From assembly GCA_021791195.1 (NCBI GenBank), contig JAJYXB010000008.1, positions 10,921-74,920 of the forward strand: a stretch of 64,000 bases of DNA. The letters are read 5' to 3'. This DNA comes from Actinomycetes bacterium (lineage in GTDB: Bacteria > Actinomycetota > Thermoleophilia > BMS3ABIN01). This document shows, one piece after another, positions 6,992 to 60,169 of this stretch. Each line of letters starts with the position of its first letter. The stretch's first letter is position 1. The translations under genes were made by a program, and so were the position numbers. Below the pieces are notes generated by a model. That model searched no databases, was not told the DNA's origin, and saw only the letters and a list, made by a program, of their open reading frames with translations.

Positions 6992-8005
<1,014 letters not shown>

Positions 8006-8006
8006 A

Positions 8007-8102
8007 GGGGACGTTCCTTTCCTAAAGTTCCTAATTCATTTGCGAGGCCGCCCTTTCCAGGCCAGTTCCCTGAATTAGGAACTTTAGGAAAGGAACGTCC
8101 CC
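8007..8102. repeat. MITE/REP-like element with 32-bp perfect terminal inverted repeat (copy A)
   Basis: GGGGACGTTCCTTTCCTAAAGTTCCTAATTCA ... 32-nt loop ... TGAATTAGGAACTTTAGGAAAGGAACGTCCCC. It fills the ilvH-ilvC spacer. A related copy is at 60084-60169. Confidence 0.65.
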
Positions 8103-8107
8103 GCTTG

Positions 8108-16345: not shown

Positions 16346-18313
16346 TCACCTGCCGCTGTCTTCGTCCGTACTCTCCCAGGCCATCACCCTGTCCTTGCCT
16401 TCTTCCTTGGCCCGGTAAAGAGAGGCGTCGGCCCGGCCGACCAGACGGTTGTCGTCCGCGGCGTCTTCCGGAAAGGTCGCCACACCGATGCTGGCGGTGA
16501 CCCTCAGCTCACCGGCGCCGGCCAGCCGCAGCCCGGCGATCGCCCGGCGCAGGCTTTCAGACACACGCATCGCCGCCTTCTTCGAAGTCTCGGGGAATAT
16601 CACCGCGAACTCCTCGCCGCCGTAGCGCGCCACGACATCGGTGCCACGCACGCGCTTCGACAGGGCGGCCCCGACCGCCTTCAGCAGCTCATCGCCGCAC
16701 TGATGGCCGTACCGGTCGTTTACGAGCTTGAAGTCATCCAGGTCGATGATCGCCAGCGACAGCACGTGCCCGTACCGCCGGCTCTTGCTGACCTCCTGGC
16801 TCAGGCTGTGCTGGAAGGATCGGAAATTGGCCAGGCCGGTCATCGGATCGGTCACCGCCAGCATCTGCTGCAGCTCGCTGAAATTGACGTTCTCGACGGC
16901 GCTGGCGGCCTGGGTTGCCAATGAATTGAGGATGCGCCGCCGGCTCTCTCCCTCCGATGCGGCGGATTCGCTGAAGACGGCCACGAGCGCGCCCAGGGAC
17001 TGCCGGTCATGCATCAGCGGATAGCCGATCGCCAGCATCTCATTGTCCAGCCGGTGGATCTCGCCGGCCTGCATGATCCCCGAGCCGATGCGATCGGCCA
17101 TCCGCCGCACATCGTTTCGGGCTCCCTCGCTGAAGAAATCTGCGGGCGCGCCCACGAAGATCGACCCGTGCCCGGGCGGCCCAATCTCGGCAAACAGCTG
17201 CACCCAGACTCCCGCGGCGCCGGTTGCCAGACGCGCGGCTTCAGCAACGGTCTTTATCAGCCTGCTGCGATCGGAAGTCGCGCCGAGGATGTCGCCCGCA
17301 TAGGTGAGAGCCAGCATCAACTGCGACCGTGATTCTTCCAGTTCATTGACATAATTTCTGATGTTGGATTGCATCAGGTTGAAGGACGCCGCCAGACCGC
17401 CGATCTCATCCCGGGACCTGATCTCCACATGACGGCCCAGATCTCCGGCCGAGCTCGCGGCAGCGGCTTCATTCAGCTTCCTTAACGGGCCGGTGATGGT
17501 GCGCGCCAGCAGGAAGCCGAGCAGGGCGGCAAGGACCAGCAGCAGGGCGGTCAGCCCCAGGCCCGCTTCGAGCGCCTGGCTGGATGCGGCCCTGACGGTG
17601 GATGCCGGCACGGCAGCCGCCAGGGTCAGCGGCACGGATGTGAGCCCGGCCGGAAGGGAAAGCTCGGTGACGACCAGGTCATGGCCGCCCGCGACGGCCT
17701 GGAATTCGGGCGAGGGCTGCGCGGGCGCCCTCCCGGTGCTGACGGCCGGCGGCGGCTTCGTTCCCGCGGCCGGCTGCAGACCGCCGCCGGGGAGCGATCC
17801 TGCCAGCCTGGTGTTGCCGCTCAGGATCATCCAGTCAAGATCCTGCGGAGAGAAAACCTGCCCGAGCGTGGAAGTATCTATCTGTTTGAGGGCATATACC
17901 TGCCCCTGGGCGCCCGCCCCGCTGGTTAAATCCACGCCCGACTTAAGCAGCGGCGCCTGAACGCCAGCGCTGCCGGACTGGGCCAATGTCTGCCCGGCGG
18001 CGCCGGCCAGCACGACGGCATCGGCGCCGGTTTCGCTCCTGATCTTATCCAGGACCGGCTGCCGCGCGGCGCCGTTTCCCGAGACCAGGGCGCCGGTGTC
18101 GGCCCGCTGCATGGCTGCCTGCAGATCGCCGGCCAGGCCGCGGTCCTGCTCGAAAATTATCGCTGAAGCCGCGGCGAGACTGCTCTGCATCCGGGCGCGG
18201 TAAGTATCCTGGCCGGAGCGGGAGAGGGCGACGCTGGAAAGCACCGTCACCGCCACCAGCGGCAGGATGACGACTCCGGCGAAGAAGAGATAGAGTTTGG
18301 TGCCAAGTTTCAT
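16346..18313 (-). CDS. Membrane sensor diguanylate cyclase (TM-periplasmic-TM-HAMP-GAF-GGDEF)
   Basis: GGDEF active site RYGGEEF with I-site RGTD, a HAMP linker and an N-terminal double TM. Confidence 0.9.
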   Translation of the reverse strand: MKLGTKLYLFFAGVVILPLVAVTVLSSVALSRSGQDTYRARMQSSLAAASAIIFEQDRGLAGDLQAAMQRADTGALVSGNGAARQPVLDKIRSETGADAVVLAGAAGQTLAQSGSAGVQAPLLKSGVDLTSGAGAQGQVYALKQIDTSTLGQVFSPQDLDWMILSGNTRLAGSLPGGGLQPAAGTKPPPAVSTGRAPAQPSPEFQAVAGGHDLVVTELSLPAGLTSVPLTLAAAVPASTVRAASSQALEAGLGLTALLLVLAALLGFLLARTITGPLRKLNEAAAASSAGDLGRHVEIRSRDEIGGLAASFNLMQSNIRNYVNELEESRSQLMLALTYAGDILGATSDRSRLIKTVAEAARLATGAAGVWVQLFAEIGPPGHGSIFVGAPADFFSEGARNDVRRMADRIGSGIMQAGEIHRLDNEMLAIGYPLMHDRQSLGALVAVFSESAASEGESRRRILNSLATQAASAVENVNFSELQQMLAVTDPMTGLANFRSFQHSLSQEVSKSRRYGHVLSLAIIDLDDFKLVNDRYGHQCGDELLKAVGAALSKRVRGTDVVARYGGEEFAVIFPETSKKAAMRVSESLRRAIAGLRLAGAGELRVTASIGVATFPEDAADDNRLVGRADASLYRAKEEGKDRVMAWESTDEDSGR

Positions 18314-18459
18314 GAACGGGAATTCCCGGGGGAAAGATCGACTTGCGGAGTAAATTCAGATACGCCGGACGGACTGGCCGCCGGTGAGAAAAACGCTCCC
18401 CTGACAAAAAATGGTGCCTGAAACAAGTATAGCAAACCCGCGGCGCTCGCCGGCGGGCG

Positions 18460-20118
18460 TCAATGCCTGCCGGAGCGGAGGATGCCTCCCACCAGCCAGA
18501 GACCGAAGAATGCCGAGATCGTGAATCCGAACAGGGCGAACAGGGAGATGCCCAGCAGGCGCGGCCCGCCCGTCACAAACAGTCCGATAACCGACGAACC
18601 GAGGATGAGCGACGCCAGCACAATGGCCACTACCAGCCGGTTCGCCAGTACGGTCAGGCGGCTGCTGAGGTCCTCGAGATTGCGGTGCACGAAGTTGATC
18701 TTCACCTCGCCCTGCCGCACCTGTTCCAGCGTGTCATGCAGCTGGTACGGCAACTGCAGCATCATGTCCAGGTATTTCTGCAGCTCGTGGCTGCCCCGCT
18801 CTACGAGACTGGCGGGCGAGTAGCGGTCGCTGACGAACTCGCGCGCGTATGGCCGGGCGAACTCAAGTACGTTGAACGAAGGGTAGATCTGTGTGGTAAT
18901 TCCCTCCAGTGTCGCCACTGACTTGTCCAGCAGCAGGAATTGCGCCGGCAGCTTCAGCTTCAGCCGGTAGATCGTGCCGAAGATGTCCCGGAAGACGACA
19001 ACCGGGTCCAGGTCGCTCAGGCGGATGCCATAGTACTTGGCGAAAAGATCCCGGAGTTCGTTGATGAACTCCGCCTCCATTTCGTGGGGAAAATCAACGC
19101 CCAGGGCGGCGAGCCGCCGGGGGATGTTTTCCACTTTCTGGTTGGTGACATCGATGAAGAGGCTGATGATGTTCTGGCGGTCATCCGGAGTCAGCCGCCC
19201 GGCGATGCCGAAATCCACCAGCCCGATGGTGCCGTCTTCCATCACCAGGATGTTGGCCGGATGCGGATCGCCGTGAAAGAAGCCGAAGAGAAAGATCTGC
19301 TTCAGCCAGCATTCGGCGATGATCGAGGCCACGGCCTTGCGCTCGGCCATCGTCATCGCCTCGGGGTCGAGATCGGCCACCTGCGTGCCTTCCAGATACT
19401 CCAGCGTCAGCACCCGGGTGGTGCTGTAGCCCCAGTAGACCTTGGGGATGGCGACTGAAGGATCCAGATCGAACAGCTGGGCGAAGCGCTCGGCGTTGCG
19501 CGCCTCGATGCGATAGTCGAGCTCGCTGCGGATGCCGCGGGCAAACTGGTCCACCACGCCCACGGGATCGACCATGATCTCCTGCCGGGTATGGTCGCTG
19601 AGCAGATGCGCGAACTGGTAGAGGAGGTCGATGTCCGCCTTGACCAGCGCCTCCGCGTCGGGCCGCTGTACCTTGACGATGACGCGGTCGCCGTTGGGCA
19701 GCACCGCCCGGTGCACCTGGCCGATGGAAGCCGCCGCGATGGGCGTGTCCTCGAACTCGATGAAGAGGCGCTCCACGGTCAGCTTCAGCTCCGACTCGAT
19801 CGTCTCGTAAGCCTGCCGGACCGGGAAAGCGCGCACCTCGTCCTGCAGCTTGCGCAGCTCCACGAGAATATCCTCGGGAAGGATGTCGGGCCGGGTGCTG
19901 AGCAACTGGCCGAACTTGATGAAGGTCGGCCCCATCTCCTCGAGCATGTTGCGGATATGGACGCCGCGGTTGCCCGTCGGCCGTTTCGCCTCGCGGCGGA
20001 TGTGCGGCATCAGGTTGCGCAGGTTATGACGTTCGAAGAAGTAACCGAAACCATGCCTGACCGCGATCTCGGTGATATGGCGCATCCTGTCGACATTTCT
20101 GACGCTGGAGAATCTCAT
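18460..20118 (-). CDS. ubiB: UbiB/ABC1-family atypical protein kinase
   Basis: ABC1 kinase-like domain (FIKFGQLLSTRPDILP..., HGDPHPANIL) with a C-terminal TM region. Confidence 0.9.
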   Translation of the reverse strand: MRFSSVRNVDRMRHITEIAVRHGFGYFFERHNLRNLMPHIRREAKRPTGNRGVHIRNMLEEMGPTFIKFGQLLSTRPDILPEDILVELRKLQDEVRAFPVRQAYETIESELKLTVERLFIEFEDTPIAAASIGQVHRAVLPNGDRVIVKVQRPDAEALVKADIDLLYQFAHLLSDHTRQEIMVDPVGVVDQFARGIRSELDYRIEARNAERFAQLFDLDPSVAIPKVYWGYSTTRVLTLEYLEGTQVADLDPEAMTMAERKAVASIIAECWLKQIFLFGFFHGDPHPANILVMEDGTIGLVDFGIAGRLTPDDRQNIISLFIDVTNQKVENIPRRLAALGVDFPHEMEAEFINELRDLFAKYYGIRLSDLDPVVVFRDIFGTIYRLKLKLPAQFLLLDKSVATLEGITTQIYPSFNVLEFARPYAREFVSDRYSPASLVERGSHELQKYLDMMLQLPYQLHDTLEQVRQGEVKINFVHRNLEDLSSRLTVLANRLVVAIVLASLILGSSVIGLFVTGGPRLLGISLFALFGFTISAFFGLWLVGGILRSGRH

Positions 20119-20142
20119 CCCTGCCTCTCGAAACCGGGGAAA

Positions 20143-20279
20143 CCCGGGACACCTTATGATTTTTTTTCGCCATCATCCCGGGGGCACTGGTCAAAAAAAT
20201 CATAAGGTGTCCCCGGTTTATTTAATCCATCATCCCGGGATGCCGGTCAAAAAAATCATAAGGTGTCCCCGGTTTATTT
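20143..20279. repeat. Triplicated 24-nt motif (one inverted, two direct) forming a long hairpin
   Basis: CCCGGGACACCTTATGATTTTTTT at 20143-20167 is the reverse complement of AAAAAAATCATAAGGTGTCCCCGG, which occurs at 20193-20216 and 20249-20272. The two direct copies sit in 52-53-bp tandem units (20171-20223 and 20228-20279). Confidence 0.75.
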
Positions 20280-20618
20280 CTGTTCTGCTTTCCGGGCAGT
20301 GGTGTCGGCTTCCAGCAGCGACAGCCGGTGCTCCAGCTGGGCGATCTTCAGCTGCATCTCCTCGAGCTGGTCTTCCGTCGCCACGCCGATATCGCGAAAT
20401 GTGCGCTGCAGGCTGGCGTCGATGCGGCTCTTGGCCGTGCGCGTCTCGTCCCGGGCCTTCTGCACCAGTTCGTTGACCGATTCCCGGCCTTCGTCGGTGG
20501 TTTCCCGCCCGCGGCCCACCAGCTCTCCGGCCAGCGCCTCCGCCACATCCCGCGACAGCGAAGCCGCGCCGATGGTCATGAGAATGCTGCGTTCCAGCAG
20601 GTTGGACATTACTTTCAC
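20274..20618 (-). CDS. Phasin-family (PHA-granule-associated/regulator-like) coiled-coil protein
   Basis: 114-aa product with the phasin_2-like pattern (LTIGAASLSRDVAEALAGELVGRG...EEMQLKIAQLEHRL). Confidence 0.55.
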   Translation of the reverse strand: MKVMSNLLERSILMTIGAASLSRDVAEALAGELVGRGRETTDEGRESVNELVQKARDETRTAKSRIDASLQRTFRDIGVATEDQLEEMQLKIAQLEHRLSLLEADTTARKAEQK

Positions 20619-20771
20619 CTCCCAACAAACGCAAATGCGGAGCTTTGGAGCATGATTTCGATCCGGACCCTCATTATAACGGCCGCCGGGTCCAGGTCCA
20701 TTAGCCAGCAGGAAGTCCGCGACAGGATTCTACCCGGGGAAAGCGTTCCGTAACTCCCGGAGACGCGTAAG

Positions 20772-20792
20772 GCCGCCGGAAAAACCGGCGGC
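20772..20792. terminator. GC hairpin downstream of secF (GCCGCCGG-aaaaa-CCGGCGGC)
   Basis: 8-bp perfect stem immediately 3' of the secF stop. No clean U-tract follows. Confidence 0.35.
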
Positions 20793-20797
20793 GGGAC

Positions 20798-21718
20798 TTA
20801 ATCCCCGGCCTTGGCCACCTTGGCCTTGCGCTGGGATCTGCTGACCTGGGGCCGGTAGCGCTTCTCGCGCTCCTTCCACAGCGTCAGCAGCGGCGCCGCC
20901 ACGAAGATGGAGGAGTAAGCGCCCGAAGCGATGCCGATCAGCAGCGCGAAGGCGAAGTCCTTGAGCGTCTGGCCGCCAAAGACGAACAGGCAGGCCACCG
21001 GCAGCAGCGTCAGCAGCGACGTGATGATTGACCGGTTCATCACTTCCCAGATGGAGTTGTTCACCATTTCGGCGTAGGCGCCGCGGCGGGCCCGGGGCGC
21101 ATTTTCCCGGATGCGGTCAAAGACGATGATGGTATCGTAGAGCGAATAACCGAGGATGGTGAGCACCGCGGCCACCGTGGCCGTGGTCACCTCCCGGCCG
21201 ACGAGCGAATAGACGCCGACGGTCACCAGCAGGTCATGGATCAGCGCCACCAGCGTCGCCACCGCCGACTTGTATTCGAACCGGGCCGAGACATAGACGA
21301 TGATGATCAGCCAGGCGAGGATGACAGCTTCGAGCATCGAGTCAACCACCTGACGGCCAAATGTCGGTCCGACGCTGTCCCAGGACTTGTCCGAGACGCC
21401 AATTTTGGTGTTGAGCGCGTTGATGACCGCATCCTCCTGATCGGCGGTCAGCGATGGCAACGTCACCTGGTAACGGCTGTCGCCAACGGTCTGGACCACG
21501 GAATCGGGATAGCCGGCGCCGGCGACGATGTCACGCACCTCGCCGACACTGGTGTTACGGTTGAACTTCGCCGTCAGGCGGCTGCCGCCCTTGAAATCGA
21601 TGCTGAGGTTGAGCCCGCGGGTAGCCAGGCTTATCAGGCCGACGATGATGACGATGCCGGAAAGGGCAAACCACCAGTACTTCTTGCCCATGAAATCTAT
21701 GTGAATTTTTTCCATCAT
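20798..21718 (-). CDS. secF: Protein translocase subunit SecF
   Basis: SecF family with 6 TM helices. Overlaps secD by 4 nt. Confidence 0.95.
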   Translation of the reverse strand: MMEKIHIDFMGKKYWWFALSGIVIIVGLISLATRGLNLSIDFKGGSRLTAKFNRNTSVGEVRDIVAGAGYPDSVVQTVGDSRYQVTLPSLTADQEDAVINALNTKIGVSDKSWDSVGPTFGRQVVDSMLEAVILAWLIIIVYVSARFEYKSAVATLVALIHDLLVTVGVYSLVGREVTTATVAAVLTILGYSLYDTIIVFDRIRENAPRARRGAYAEMVNNSIWEVMNRSIITSLLTLLPVACLFVFGGQTLKDFAFALLIGIASGAYSSIFVAAPLLTLWKEREKRYRPQVSRSQRKAKVAKAGD

Positions 21719-23148: not shown

Positions 23149-23304
23149 ATAATTTCCTGCTCAAGAAATTTCCTGCTCAAGACGTAAAAAACAGGCCCGC
23201 CTGAAGTTCACGGCAGCCCTTAAAAAAGCATAAGTGAAAAGCAGGAGGGTGTCAAAGAATCCGGGCCACCACGGCTGATTCGTCGCCAGCGCCCGGCAAT
23301 CACA

Positions 23305-58960: not shown

Positions 58961-59989
58961 CTACCCTTCCGTCAAAACGAAATAATCCCGATGGATCACT
59001 TCCTCGTCCCCGTGCGGCATCAGCTCCATCACGCGGCTGCTCTTCAGGCCCTTGATCTGCTCCAGCTCGCCCGCCGCATAGGTGACGATGCCCTTGCCGA
59101 TGAGCTCGCGGTCGCTGGCCCGCAAGACGTCTATCGCCTCACCGGCGTCGAATTCGCCTTCCACGCCGACGATACCCGCTGCCAGCAGGCTCGTGCCGCG
59201 CCCAACCAGCGCCGCGGCCGCGCCATCGTCCACAAGCACAGCGCCGCTGCTGGGCCGGCCGTACTTCAACCACAGCTTGAAACTGCTGATGGAAGACTCG
59301 AGTGGAACAAACCTGGTTCCTGCCTGCTCTCCCCGGGCGGCTGCGGTGATGACGCCGGGCCGGGCGCCGCTGGCGATCACAACCTCTATGCCGGCTGACG
59401 TCGCCATCTCGGCGGCGACGACTTTGCTCTTCATGCCGCCCGAACCGATCGCAGTCCCCGCACCGCCAGTCTCGATGCCCTCGAGCAGGGACCAGTCGCT
59501 GACTTCCTCGATCAGTCTAGCAGCGGGGTCCACGGAGGGGTCACCAGTATATAACCCTTCCGTATCGGTGAGCAACAACAGCAGATCGGCCTTGATAAGC
59601 ATGGCGACCTGAGCGGCCAGGAAATCATTGTCGCCGTAGCGGATCTCGTCGGCGGAGGTGGTGTCGTTCTCGTTGATGATCGGGACGATGCCCCATTCGC
59701 GCAGCTTCAGCAGAGTGCCGCGCGCATTCAGGTACTGGCTGCGCGCCGCGATATCGTATGAGGTGAGCAGGATCTGGGCGGTGGTGACGCCGCCGCGGCG
59801 GAACAATTCGTAGTAGCGGTGATAGAGCCGTCCCTGGCCCACTGCCGAAACTGCCTGCAATTCGACAGTTTCTCGCGGACGCTTCGACACCGGCAGCATA
59901 CCGAGGCCACACGAAATGGCTCCGGAGGAGACGACTACGGCACTGTTCCCCTGTTTGACAAACGCGATGATCTGATCGGTGATTGCCAC
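58961..59989 (-). CDS. proB: Glutamate 5-kinase with C-terminal PUA domain
   Basis: Amino-acid kinase fold plus PUA. The conserved N-terminus (KTCVVKIGSNTLTDEGG) continues in-frame about 80 nt upstream of the listed GTG, so the true start is upstream and probably non-canonical. Confidence 0.9.
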   Translation of the reverse strand: MAITDQIIAFVKQGNSAVVVSSGAISCGLGMLPVSKRPRETVELQAVSAVGQGRLYHRYYELFRRGGVTTAQILLTSYDIAARSQYLNARGTLLKLREWGIVPIINENDTTSADEIRYGDNDFLAAQVAMLIKADLLLLLTDTEGLYTGDPSVDPAARLIEEVSDWSLLEGIETGGAGTAIGSGGMKSKVVAAEMATSAGIEVVIASGARPGVITAAARGEQAGTRFVPLESSISSFKLWLKYGRPSSGAVLVDDGAAAALVGRGTSLLAAGIVGVEGEFDAGEAIDVLRASDRELIGKGIVTYAAGELEQIKGLKSSRVMELMPHGDEEVIHRDYFVLTEG

Positions 59990-60083
59990 CAGCGCCTCTT
60001 CGCGCAGACAGCCGCCCTCATCAGTCAGGGTGTTGCTACCGATTTTTACGACGCAGGTCTTTGACAGTGCAACCGCTCCTTTT

Positions 60084-60169
60084 GGGGACGTTCCTTTCCT
60101 AACGATCCTACTTTTGGAAAAGTCAGGCCTTATTTATGTGTCATCAGGATTGTTAGGAAAGCGTCCCCG
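60084..60169. repeat. MITE/REP-like element copy B (imperfect TIR GGGGACGTTCCTTTCCTAA...TTAGGAAAGCGTCCCC)
   Basis: Same termini as the 8007-8102 element. Its right TIR contains the murA stop codon and the last ~4 codons. Its left end lies just upstream of the proB 5' region. Confidence 0.55.

Follow-up and report, generated by a model that had tools for sequence, protein, structure and literature searches.

A palindromic element with strain-variable arm number in the spacer between a phasin-like gene and ubiB of an uncultured actinobacterium

The spacer between a phasin-like gene and ubiB in this genome of an uncultured member of the Actinomycetota holds a 24-nt motif, AAAAAAATCATAAGGTGTCCCCGG, in three copies, two direct and one inverted, which raises the question of what kind of element this is and whether it acts on the genes at either side. 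A first-pass annotation had proposed a terminator or attenuator of the phasin-like gene, an operator array controlling ubiB, or a small mobile repeat. The three copies were confirmed at 20193-20216 and 20249-20272 on the plus strand, with no mismatches, and at 20143-20166 on the minus strand, with one mismatch. The motif occurs nowhere else in the 64-kb window (the whole stretch of DNA analysed, 64,000 nt), and none of 100 dinucleotide shuffles matched it. Both flanking genes lie on the minus strand. The upstream gene (20274..20609, 111 aa) is named 'phasin family protein' in the sources, and its product gives a weak match to PF05597, under the gathering threshold, while the downstream gene (18460..20118, 552 aa) encodes UbiB, an ABC1 atypical kinase. 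The element fills the 155-nt spacer between the two, and the order along the sense strand is phasin stop codon, 5' arm, spacer, 5' arm, loop, 3' arm, ubiB ribosome-binding region and ATG.

The basic unit of the element is a single inverted repeat, its arms 27 nt long and its loop 26 nt. These arms are 96% complementary, with 26 of 27 positions forming Watson-Crick pairs, which bears out the long, near-perfect stem described at first. The single inverted copy, which is the 3' arm (20140..20166, minus strand), lies 25-48 nt upstream of the ubiB ATG at 20118, much as had been annotated, and can pair with either of two 5' arms on the same strand, one at 20193-20219 across a gap of 26 nt and the other at 20249-20275 across a gap of 82 nt. 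The first of these (copy 2) is present in all strains, and the second (copy 1, minus-strand sequence AAACCGGGGACACCTTATGATTTTTTT), which sits beside the phasin stop codon, is missing in strains that carry a single unit. The G+C-rich loop of 26 nt (20167..20192, minus strand) differs from strain to strain (AGTGCC vs GGCGCC), and sister lineages have unrelated sequence in its place. The loop is paralleled by the spacer of tandem unit 1 (20220..20248, minus strand, GACCGGCATCCCGGGATGATGGATTAAAT...), which holds a 12-nt palindrome, CATCCCGGGATG. At the base of the 3' arm there is also a 9-nt mini-repeat, GAAACCCGG, in 2.7 copies (20130..20153), which gives the base of the 5' arm a second possible partner (TCCCCGGTTT). 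Read from the sequence, the arm ACCGGGGACACCTTATGATTTTTTT contains no internal palindrome beyond CCGG.

Tandem Repeats Finder (TRF) describes the region 20170..20279 as 1.9 copies of a 56-nt repeat with 92% matches, and the start-to-start spacing of the direct copies is likewise 56 nt, so the period of 52-53 bp given earlier needs correcting. The last copy had also been said to overlap the stop codon of the phasin-like gene; this holds for the 27-nt arm (to 20275) and for the extended repeat (to 20279), but the 24-nt motif itself ends at 20272, one base short of the TAA at 20274-20276. The rejection of a CRISPR-like arrangement was correct. Folding of 20100-20300 gave -83.8 kcal/mol (minus strand) and -81.5 kcal/mol (plus strand), with z = -5.8 against shuffles for each, and the apical half of the stem is A/U-rich. 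The stem is flanked by an A-tract on its 5' side and TTT on its 3' side. The tail CCGGTTTATTT noted after the stem does exist on the plus strand, which is however antisense to both genes, and the sense-strand tail, GGGUUUCCCCGGUUUCG, has no U-tract. With 26 of 27 positions paired, the transcript would offer the roughly 20 bp or more of near-continuous double-stranded RNA expected of a candidate RNase III substrate. No Rfam 15 model matched the element at gathering thresholds, and the best permissive match, a plant miRNA-precursor model that scored 34 bits where its threshold is 100, amounts to generic hairpin noise. Small ORFs within the repeat (MIFLTGIPG in unit 1 and a 59-aa ORF in unit 2) were set aside as coincidence; locus L036 has ATG-TAA, but L029 has ACG in place of the ATG. 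Similarly, we do not claim the loops as degenerate extra copies of the arm, as their local alignments were no more than weakly better than those of shuffles (35/1000, 87/1000 and 202/1000).

The nature of the second direct copy becomes clear when strains are compared. Look-ups with the exact proteins traced the locus to metagenome-assembled genomes labelled Thermoleophilia / Actinomycetota. Spacers were aligned from loci with an identical phasin protein, together with L040-L045, in which this protein differs slightly. The two-unit form of the window is shared by L001, L003, L004 and L008-L010, whilst L005 and L040-L045 carry a one-unit form, which is a plain hairpin. Two units with other junctions are found in L002 and in L006/L007, the latter also carrying a 12-nt duplication. 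The 5' arm and loop are therefore present in one or two copies in near-identical strains, with three different junctions. The window and L005 show 100% identity over the phasin coding sequence and over the first 588 nt of ubiB, and the phasin coding sequences of the two one-unit strains compared (L040 and L005) are 99.7-100% identical to that of the window. The one-unit form is not an assembly collapse, because it comes from seven independent assemblies and has a linked loop variant of its own. Across strains, the second direct copy is thus present or absent as a 56-nt tandem duplication that takes in the 5' arm and the loop, a polymorphism of minisatellite type, and the triplication amounts to variation in copy number that affects one arm of a lone palindrome. 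As several otherwise near-identical strains do without it, the second direct copy is not required. The element itself was found in all strains, and it is only the number of arms that varies.

Sister lineages carry diverged versions at the same site. L029 has one hairpin with one 5' arm, in which 24 of 27 positions are Watson-Crick pairs, one is G-U and two are mismatches. In a 22-nt comparison anchored on GGGGAC, five pair positions differ between its arms and those of the window, and two of these five are adjacent pairs altered on both sides, from CT/AG to AA/TT. In L036/L037, whose phasin protein is 88% identical, two direct 5' arms with a period of 37 nt accompany a single inverted arm, independently of the window. 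The inner arm of L036/L037 is entirely different from that of the window, GGGGACACCTTAAAATGTAAAATCC pairing with GGATTTTACATTTTAAGGTGTCCCC, and the L036 stem has 26 of 28 Watson-Crick pairs. What is conserved is the base of the stem: GGGGACAC starts the 5' arm in the window group, L029 and L036, and the 3' arm ends in GTGTCCCC in L036, GTGTCCC in the window group and GCGTCCC in L029. A four-sequence alignment that includes the stem base has four pairs altered on both sides between the window group and L029, and 94% of its cells are paired, against 37-64% when the partner is slid. The values for pair changes on both sides were reached by 3 of 500 shuffles, and the slid controls gave 0-2. These pair counts concern four sequences only, L036 having been left out, as its 3' arm was misaligned in MAFFT, and used as a positive control for the covariance model. 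In these alignments, the complementarity of the arms has been maintained through a rapid turnover of their sequence.

The rate of this turnover is evident from the comparison of the window with L029, in which identity is 97.9% in the phasin coding sequence, 95.1% in secF and 89.9% in the upstream spacer, but 63.4% in the hairpin spacer. Divergence of the spacer so much faster than that of its flanks fits the multi-nucleotide templated changes of template switching (PMC8794818, PMC8604942). The uncompensated changes in L029 are A.C and C.A on the sense strand and would be G.U on the antisense strand, so that any RNA-level selection may act on either strand. An inversion of the loop between the window and L029 was considered, and is not claimed as it rests on a shared ATCAT only.

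The gene order tgt-yajC-secD-secF, followed by the phasin-like gene, the ABC1 kinase and a GGDEF gene, is kept, and the phasin-like gene precedes the ABC1 kinase in all fetched lineages with a contig reaching past the spacer. The series of phasin-like gene, ABC1/UbiB kinase and HAMP-GGDEF cyclase (window 16346-20609; L001-L010) is also seen in L030 and L033, and in L035 a response regulator follows the kinase in place of the cyclase. The link between a protein of granule or lipid-droplet type and an ABC1 kinase may be functional. A sigma-70-like promoter match, TGGACC-16-TATAAT (20673..20700, minus strand), lies upstream of the phasin-like gene and is the sole match in 19900-20900. A consensus scan found no promoter-like site inside the phasin-ubiB spacer, the TATGAT hexamer there having no acceptable -35 element. 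The likely ribosome-binding region of ubiB, GAGAGGCAGGG (20119..20129, minus strand), as read from the sequence, is outside the stem, 10 nt downstream of it. Between the secF stop and the phasin promoter (20760-20797, minus strand) there is a G+C-rich 8-bp hairpin, GCCGCCGG-TTTTT-CCGGCGGC, without a U-tract, which may be an example of operon-end hairpins in this organism. Directly upstream of the secD start (23151-23182) we also observed a perfect 16-nt tandem duplication, minus-strand TCTTGAGCAGGAAATT twice, which includes a Shine-Dalgarno-like GAGCAGGAAA; the unit is double in the window clade and L029 and single in L035.

In more distant relatives the phasin-ubiB spacer takes other forms. 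L033 has a terminator-like GC hairpin followed by UUUGGG, suggesting that a structural barrier after the phasin-like gene is recurrent, and the spacer of L035 has no significant structure (z = -1.3). L030 (3352-3454), L038 (1070-1218) and L039, in which the phasin is 73-81% identical, have another palindromic element in this spacer, of the sequence AAATTG(T/C)CATTCTGAG...CGAAGAATC...CTCAGGATGACA. The yajC-secD spacer of L030 (about 300-400) holds another long A/T-rich hairpin (GATTTTGGATGCTGGATCCTGGAT ... ATCCAACATCCAGGGTCCAATATCCAAAATC). The contigs L029 (end 3436), L031 and L032 stop inside or just past the phasin-ubiB spacer, as expected where a repeat or a strain-variable allele breaks assembly.

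The best explanation, in which we place middling confidence, is a resident, fast-evolving palindromic element in the phasin-like to ubiB spacer, shaped by slippage and template switching and probably transcribed as a stem-loop that would partly separate expression of the phasin-like gene from that of ubiB. Duplications of the arm would arise by hairpin processes at the DNA level, namely replication slippage and intramolecular template switching (quasi-palindrome correction), processes that homogenise the arms of inverted repeats and yield multi-base paired changes (PMC8794818, PMC8604942). Selection for pairing possibly helps the arms to stay complementary while their sequence turns over. The spacer would be co-transcribed from the promoter upstream of the phasin-like gene, as suggested by the position of the sole promoter-like site and by the conserved gene order, giving an mRNA in which the phasin stop codon is followed at once by a stem-loop of about 27-30 bp. 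This fold might form a barrier between the cistrons through protection of the 3' end, leaky termination or as the target of a double-strand RNase, and the cell would in that case produce the small structural protein in excess of the kinase. A barrier or attenuator in the mRNA, in this looser sense, is a plausible candidate role, and the earlier interpretation as a whole is partly supported.

There are points against this explanation. The stem is longer and more perfect than an RNA function needs, and the L035 spacer makes do without significant structure. In addition, loss and gain of whole arms in near-identical strains suggest weak constraint, and it may be that the palindrome serves no function. 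It belongs to a familiar and ordinary kind, that of intergenic palindromes behaving as a variable-number tandem repeat (VNTR). Its sequence is uncharacterised, and it is not a new regulatory system.

The main rival is an origin as a mobile element, in which a non-autonomous palindromic element similar to a MITE or REPIN, of a genome-wide class with GGGGAC...GTCCCC ends, settled in a permissive spacer together with a partial tandem copy, any effect on the host being incidental. We regard this as unlikely, though a possibility of some weight. Its build resembles that of Correia, ERIC and REPIN elements, with inverted arms of 27-32 nt, a spacer of 26-36 nt and a total of 80-96 nt (PMC3116915, PMC2649163), and A/T-rich hairpins stand out in a genome of 63% G+C. 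Two others were identified in the window, and A, B and the element under study are the only outstanding A/T-rich hairpins in it. Hairpin A lies in the ilvN-ilvC spacer (8007..8102, minus strand), with perfect 32-nt arms, GGGGACGTTCCTTTCCTAAAGTTCCTAATTCA, a 32-nt loop and a fold of -70 kcal/mol (z = -10). Its 3' arm holds the Shine-Dalgarno-like sequence of ilvC, AGGAAAGGAA, and the ATG follows 1 nt after the stem. Hairpin B lies in the aroA-proB spacer (60084..60169, minus strand), with the aroA stop codon inside one arm. Although at unlinked loci, A and B share the first 19 nt of the arm, GGGGACGTTCCTTTCCTAA. All three hairpins lie between co-oriented genes, start with GGGGAC and end with GTCCCC or GTCCC, and these ends, together with the 19 nt common to two unlinked arms, point to dispersal over purely local evolution. 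Other families of A/T-rich hairpins in like spacers of relatives (L056, L030 and L038), and the breaking of contigs at the element in L029, L031 and L032, would also agree with mobility; lineage-specific intercistronic hairpins seem common in the clade. In L056, whose ilvC is 88% identical, a different A/T-rich family is found in the ilvN-ilvC spacer and in that between ilvC and the next gene (290-380 and 1395-1470), with two copies of a CAGTTTC-type arm and short internal repeats (CAGTTTCGGGTTTCTGGTTTCTGG... / CAGTTTCAAGTTTCAAGTT...). Near hairpin B, the conserved N-terminus of ProB, VVKIGSNTLT (about 59989-60075, minus strand), is encoded upstream of the first in-frame ATG, GTG or TTG, and a CTG is the only candidate start behind the AAAGGAG ribosome-binding site, which suggests that proB uses an uncommon start codon or that the hairpin has changed its 5' end.

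The search for further copies, which the first-pass annotation had called for, weighs in part against mobility within the sequence that it covered. Neither the 64-kb window nor the related loci, about 63 kb in all, contained a second locus of the element, also when searched with a covariance model built from four hairpin variants. This model recovered the diverged L036 ortholog at 29 bits, as a positive control, and gave no other locus in these 127 kb, although with filters off it scored 22.8 bits (E about 0.008) at window 8005-8106, which is hairpin A, a result that counts in favour of the mobile reading. An exact-motif scan of one genome per species, in a set without the source genome, returned 16 single matches in unrelated phyla, approximately what chance gives for 18 nt. 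A metagenome scan returned two matches, both in unrelated sequence that shows neither repeat nor hairpin nearby, and these were put down to chance; as the scan did not return JGI contigs known to carry the motif, its negative carries no information. Viral scans with the motif of the element (exact match) and with the A/B motif found nothing, nor did BLAST against plasmids and phages. Target-site duplications are also lacking, as there is no direct duplication in the flanks of the element (CAGAAAT / CCCCGGTTTCG), of hairpin A (CAAGC / TATG) or of hairpin B (CCGAGC / AAAAGG). The diverged versions at the orthologous site in L029 and L036 fit vertical descent. Similarly, hairpin A is fixed, being present in 10 of the 10 strain loci shown (of 19 contigs read) with two variable positions, both single-base substitutions, and no empty site was seen among these strains.

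A further reading is that the element and hairpins A and B form a clade-wide functional class in uncultured Thermoleophilia, of A/T-rich intercistronic stem-loops of 80-100 nt with a GGGGAC...GTCCCC clamp, which would gate translation or processing of the downstream cistron, with the number of arms as a heritable tuning knob for expression. We consider this improbable. The 5' arms of the three hairpins look like the anti-Shine-Dalgarno sequence (CACCUU, CCUUUCC), and a Shine-Dalgarno-like AAGG(A/U)G is present in the 3' arms. If the three GGGGAC-clamped hairpins were indeed a functional class controlling downstream cistrons, the finding would matter more. The ilvN-ilvC case is the most striking, because a perfect 32-bp stem buries the ilvC ribosome-binding site, and this hairpin and the clade-wide pattern merit attention above the triplication.

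No better placed is a dedicated RNA switch or attenuator, in which two 5' arms compete for one 3' arm, or a terminating ribosome melts the arm next to the stop codon, and which sets ubiB expression through RNA-unfolding coupling or regulated RNase III processing. RNA unfolding has been established as a means of translational coupling in other gene pairs (PMC12548453). Here the stem adjoins the stop codon, two lineages have two 5' arms independently of each other, the Shine-Dalgarno sequence of ubiB in L036, AGGAG, is partly within the base of the stem, and that of ilvC is fully sequestered in hairpin A. However, the second arm is dispensable, since strains with one 5' arm are otherwise near-identical and the L029 lineage also has one. 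The alternative pairings give the same 3' context, the ubiB ribosome-binding region of the window is outside the stem, and Rfam offers no match beyond generic hairpin noise. We therefore hold such a switch to be as doubtful as the clade-wide class.

An array of protein-binding sites on the DNA, whether as operators bound by a ubiB regulator or as an internal promoter for ubiB that makes use of the TATGAT in each direct copy, is more doubtful still. The outer motif is largely conserved in three lineages (GGGGACAC on the 5' side; GTGTCCCC, GTGTCCC or GCGTCCC on the 3' side) and each direct copy has a TANNNT hexamer directed toward ubiB (TATGAT, with TACGAT in L029 and TAAAAT in L036), but such hexamers would be expected by chance in A/T-rich sequence, and the consensus scan finds no promoter-like site in the spacer. 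The operator array suggested at first is also made unlikely by half-sites that are 26 nt apart, by inner arms that have been replaced and yet remain complementary, which a protein site does not require, and by a number of direct copies that differs between near-identical strains. Least probable of all is the classical Rho-independent terminator of the phasin-like gene, or a bidirectional one, for although a strong hairpin directly follows the stop codon, with an A-tract 5' and TTT 3' of the stem, the consensus scan picks out no terminator here, whichever strand is read, the stem of 27 bp and loop of 26 nt contrast with a short G+C-rich stem (about 5-14 bp) and a loop of 3-8 nt, the sense tail does not have 5 U in 8, the T-rich tail is antisense, where no gene converges, and canonical terminator counts across the window are near shuffle expectation.

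With a resident and fast-evolving palindrome as the preferred reading, the locus is a documented example of how a long intergenic palindrome evolves in a natural population of uncultured Actinomycetota, covering duplication and loss of arms, multi-base paired changes and divergence several-fold faster than in neighbouring non-coding DNA. It can be used as a strain marker of VNTR type. It also gives cause for caution, as compensatory changes in a perfect stem can come from template switching in DNA and not from selection at the RNA level.

Among known systems, the element is similar to the MIRU-VNTR loci in having a tandem unit of about 50-100 bp (here 56 nt) between co-oriented actinobacterial genes, a unit that includes the upstream stop codon, and a copy number that differs among close strains (here 1 or 2). 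MIRUs, as Supply et al. are said to have described them in 1997/2000, are a dispersed family with shared sequence at about 40 loci and are not palindromic, whereas the present element is at one locus in the window and its unit is half of a long palindrome. Correia elements (CREE) of Neisseria, ERIC and REPINs are alike in size (about 80-100 nt), in having inverted ends of about 26 nt and a variable core (PMC2649163, PMC3116915), and in their extragenic or intercistronic position, and once transcribed they fold into a long hairpin. The hairpins of Correia elements serve as substrates of RNase III and change the expression of neighbouring genes (PMC2649163), to which the action proposed here would be analogous. 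As in the Correia and ERIC elements (MITEs), there are terminal inverted repeats here, but no target-site duplication. As in REPINs, two inverted repeats and a spacer form a long hairpin, but each REP is a short palindrome with a conserved 5' tetranucleotide, whereas the arms of the present element are not palindromic. REP sequences are dispersed in tens to hundreds of copies per genome and accompanied by a RAYT gene; the present element is known from one locus across the 64-kb window and about 63 kb of related loci. The palindromic operator of a dimeric regulator differs in its closely spaced conserved half-sites.

Intercistronic stem-loops in mRNA set differential expression within operons, as for the REP sequences in malE-malF and the hairpins of the puf operon. 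The element is similar to these, and to gene pairs coupled by RNA unfolding (PMC12548453), in that a stable predicted stem-loop follows directly on the stop codon of the first gene in a co-oriented pair and precedes the ribosome-binding site of the second, although its stem is much longer than in the classical examples. Hotspots of quasi-palindrome correction and template switching are a mutational mechanism and not a functional family, and so explain the evolution of the element rather than its action, but they share with it homogenised arms, adjacent multi-base 'compensatory' changes and a fast turnover relative to the flanks (PMC8794818, PMC8604942, PMC7202029).
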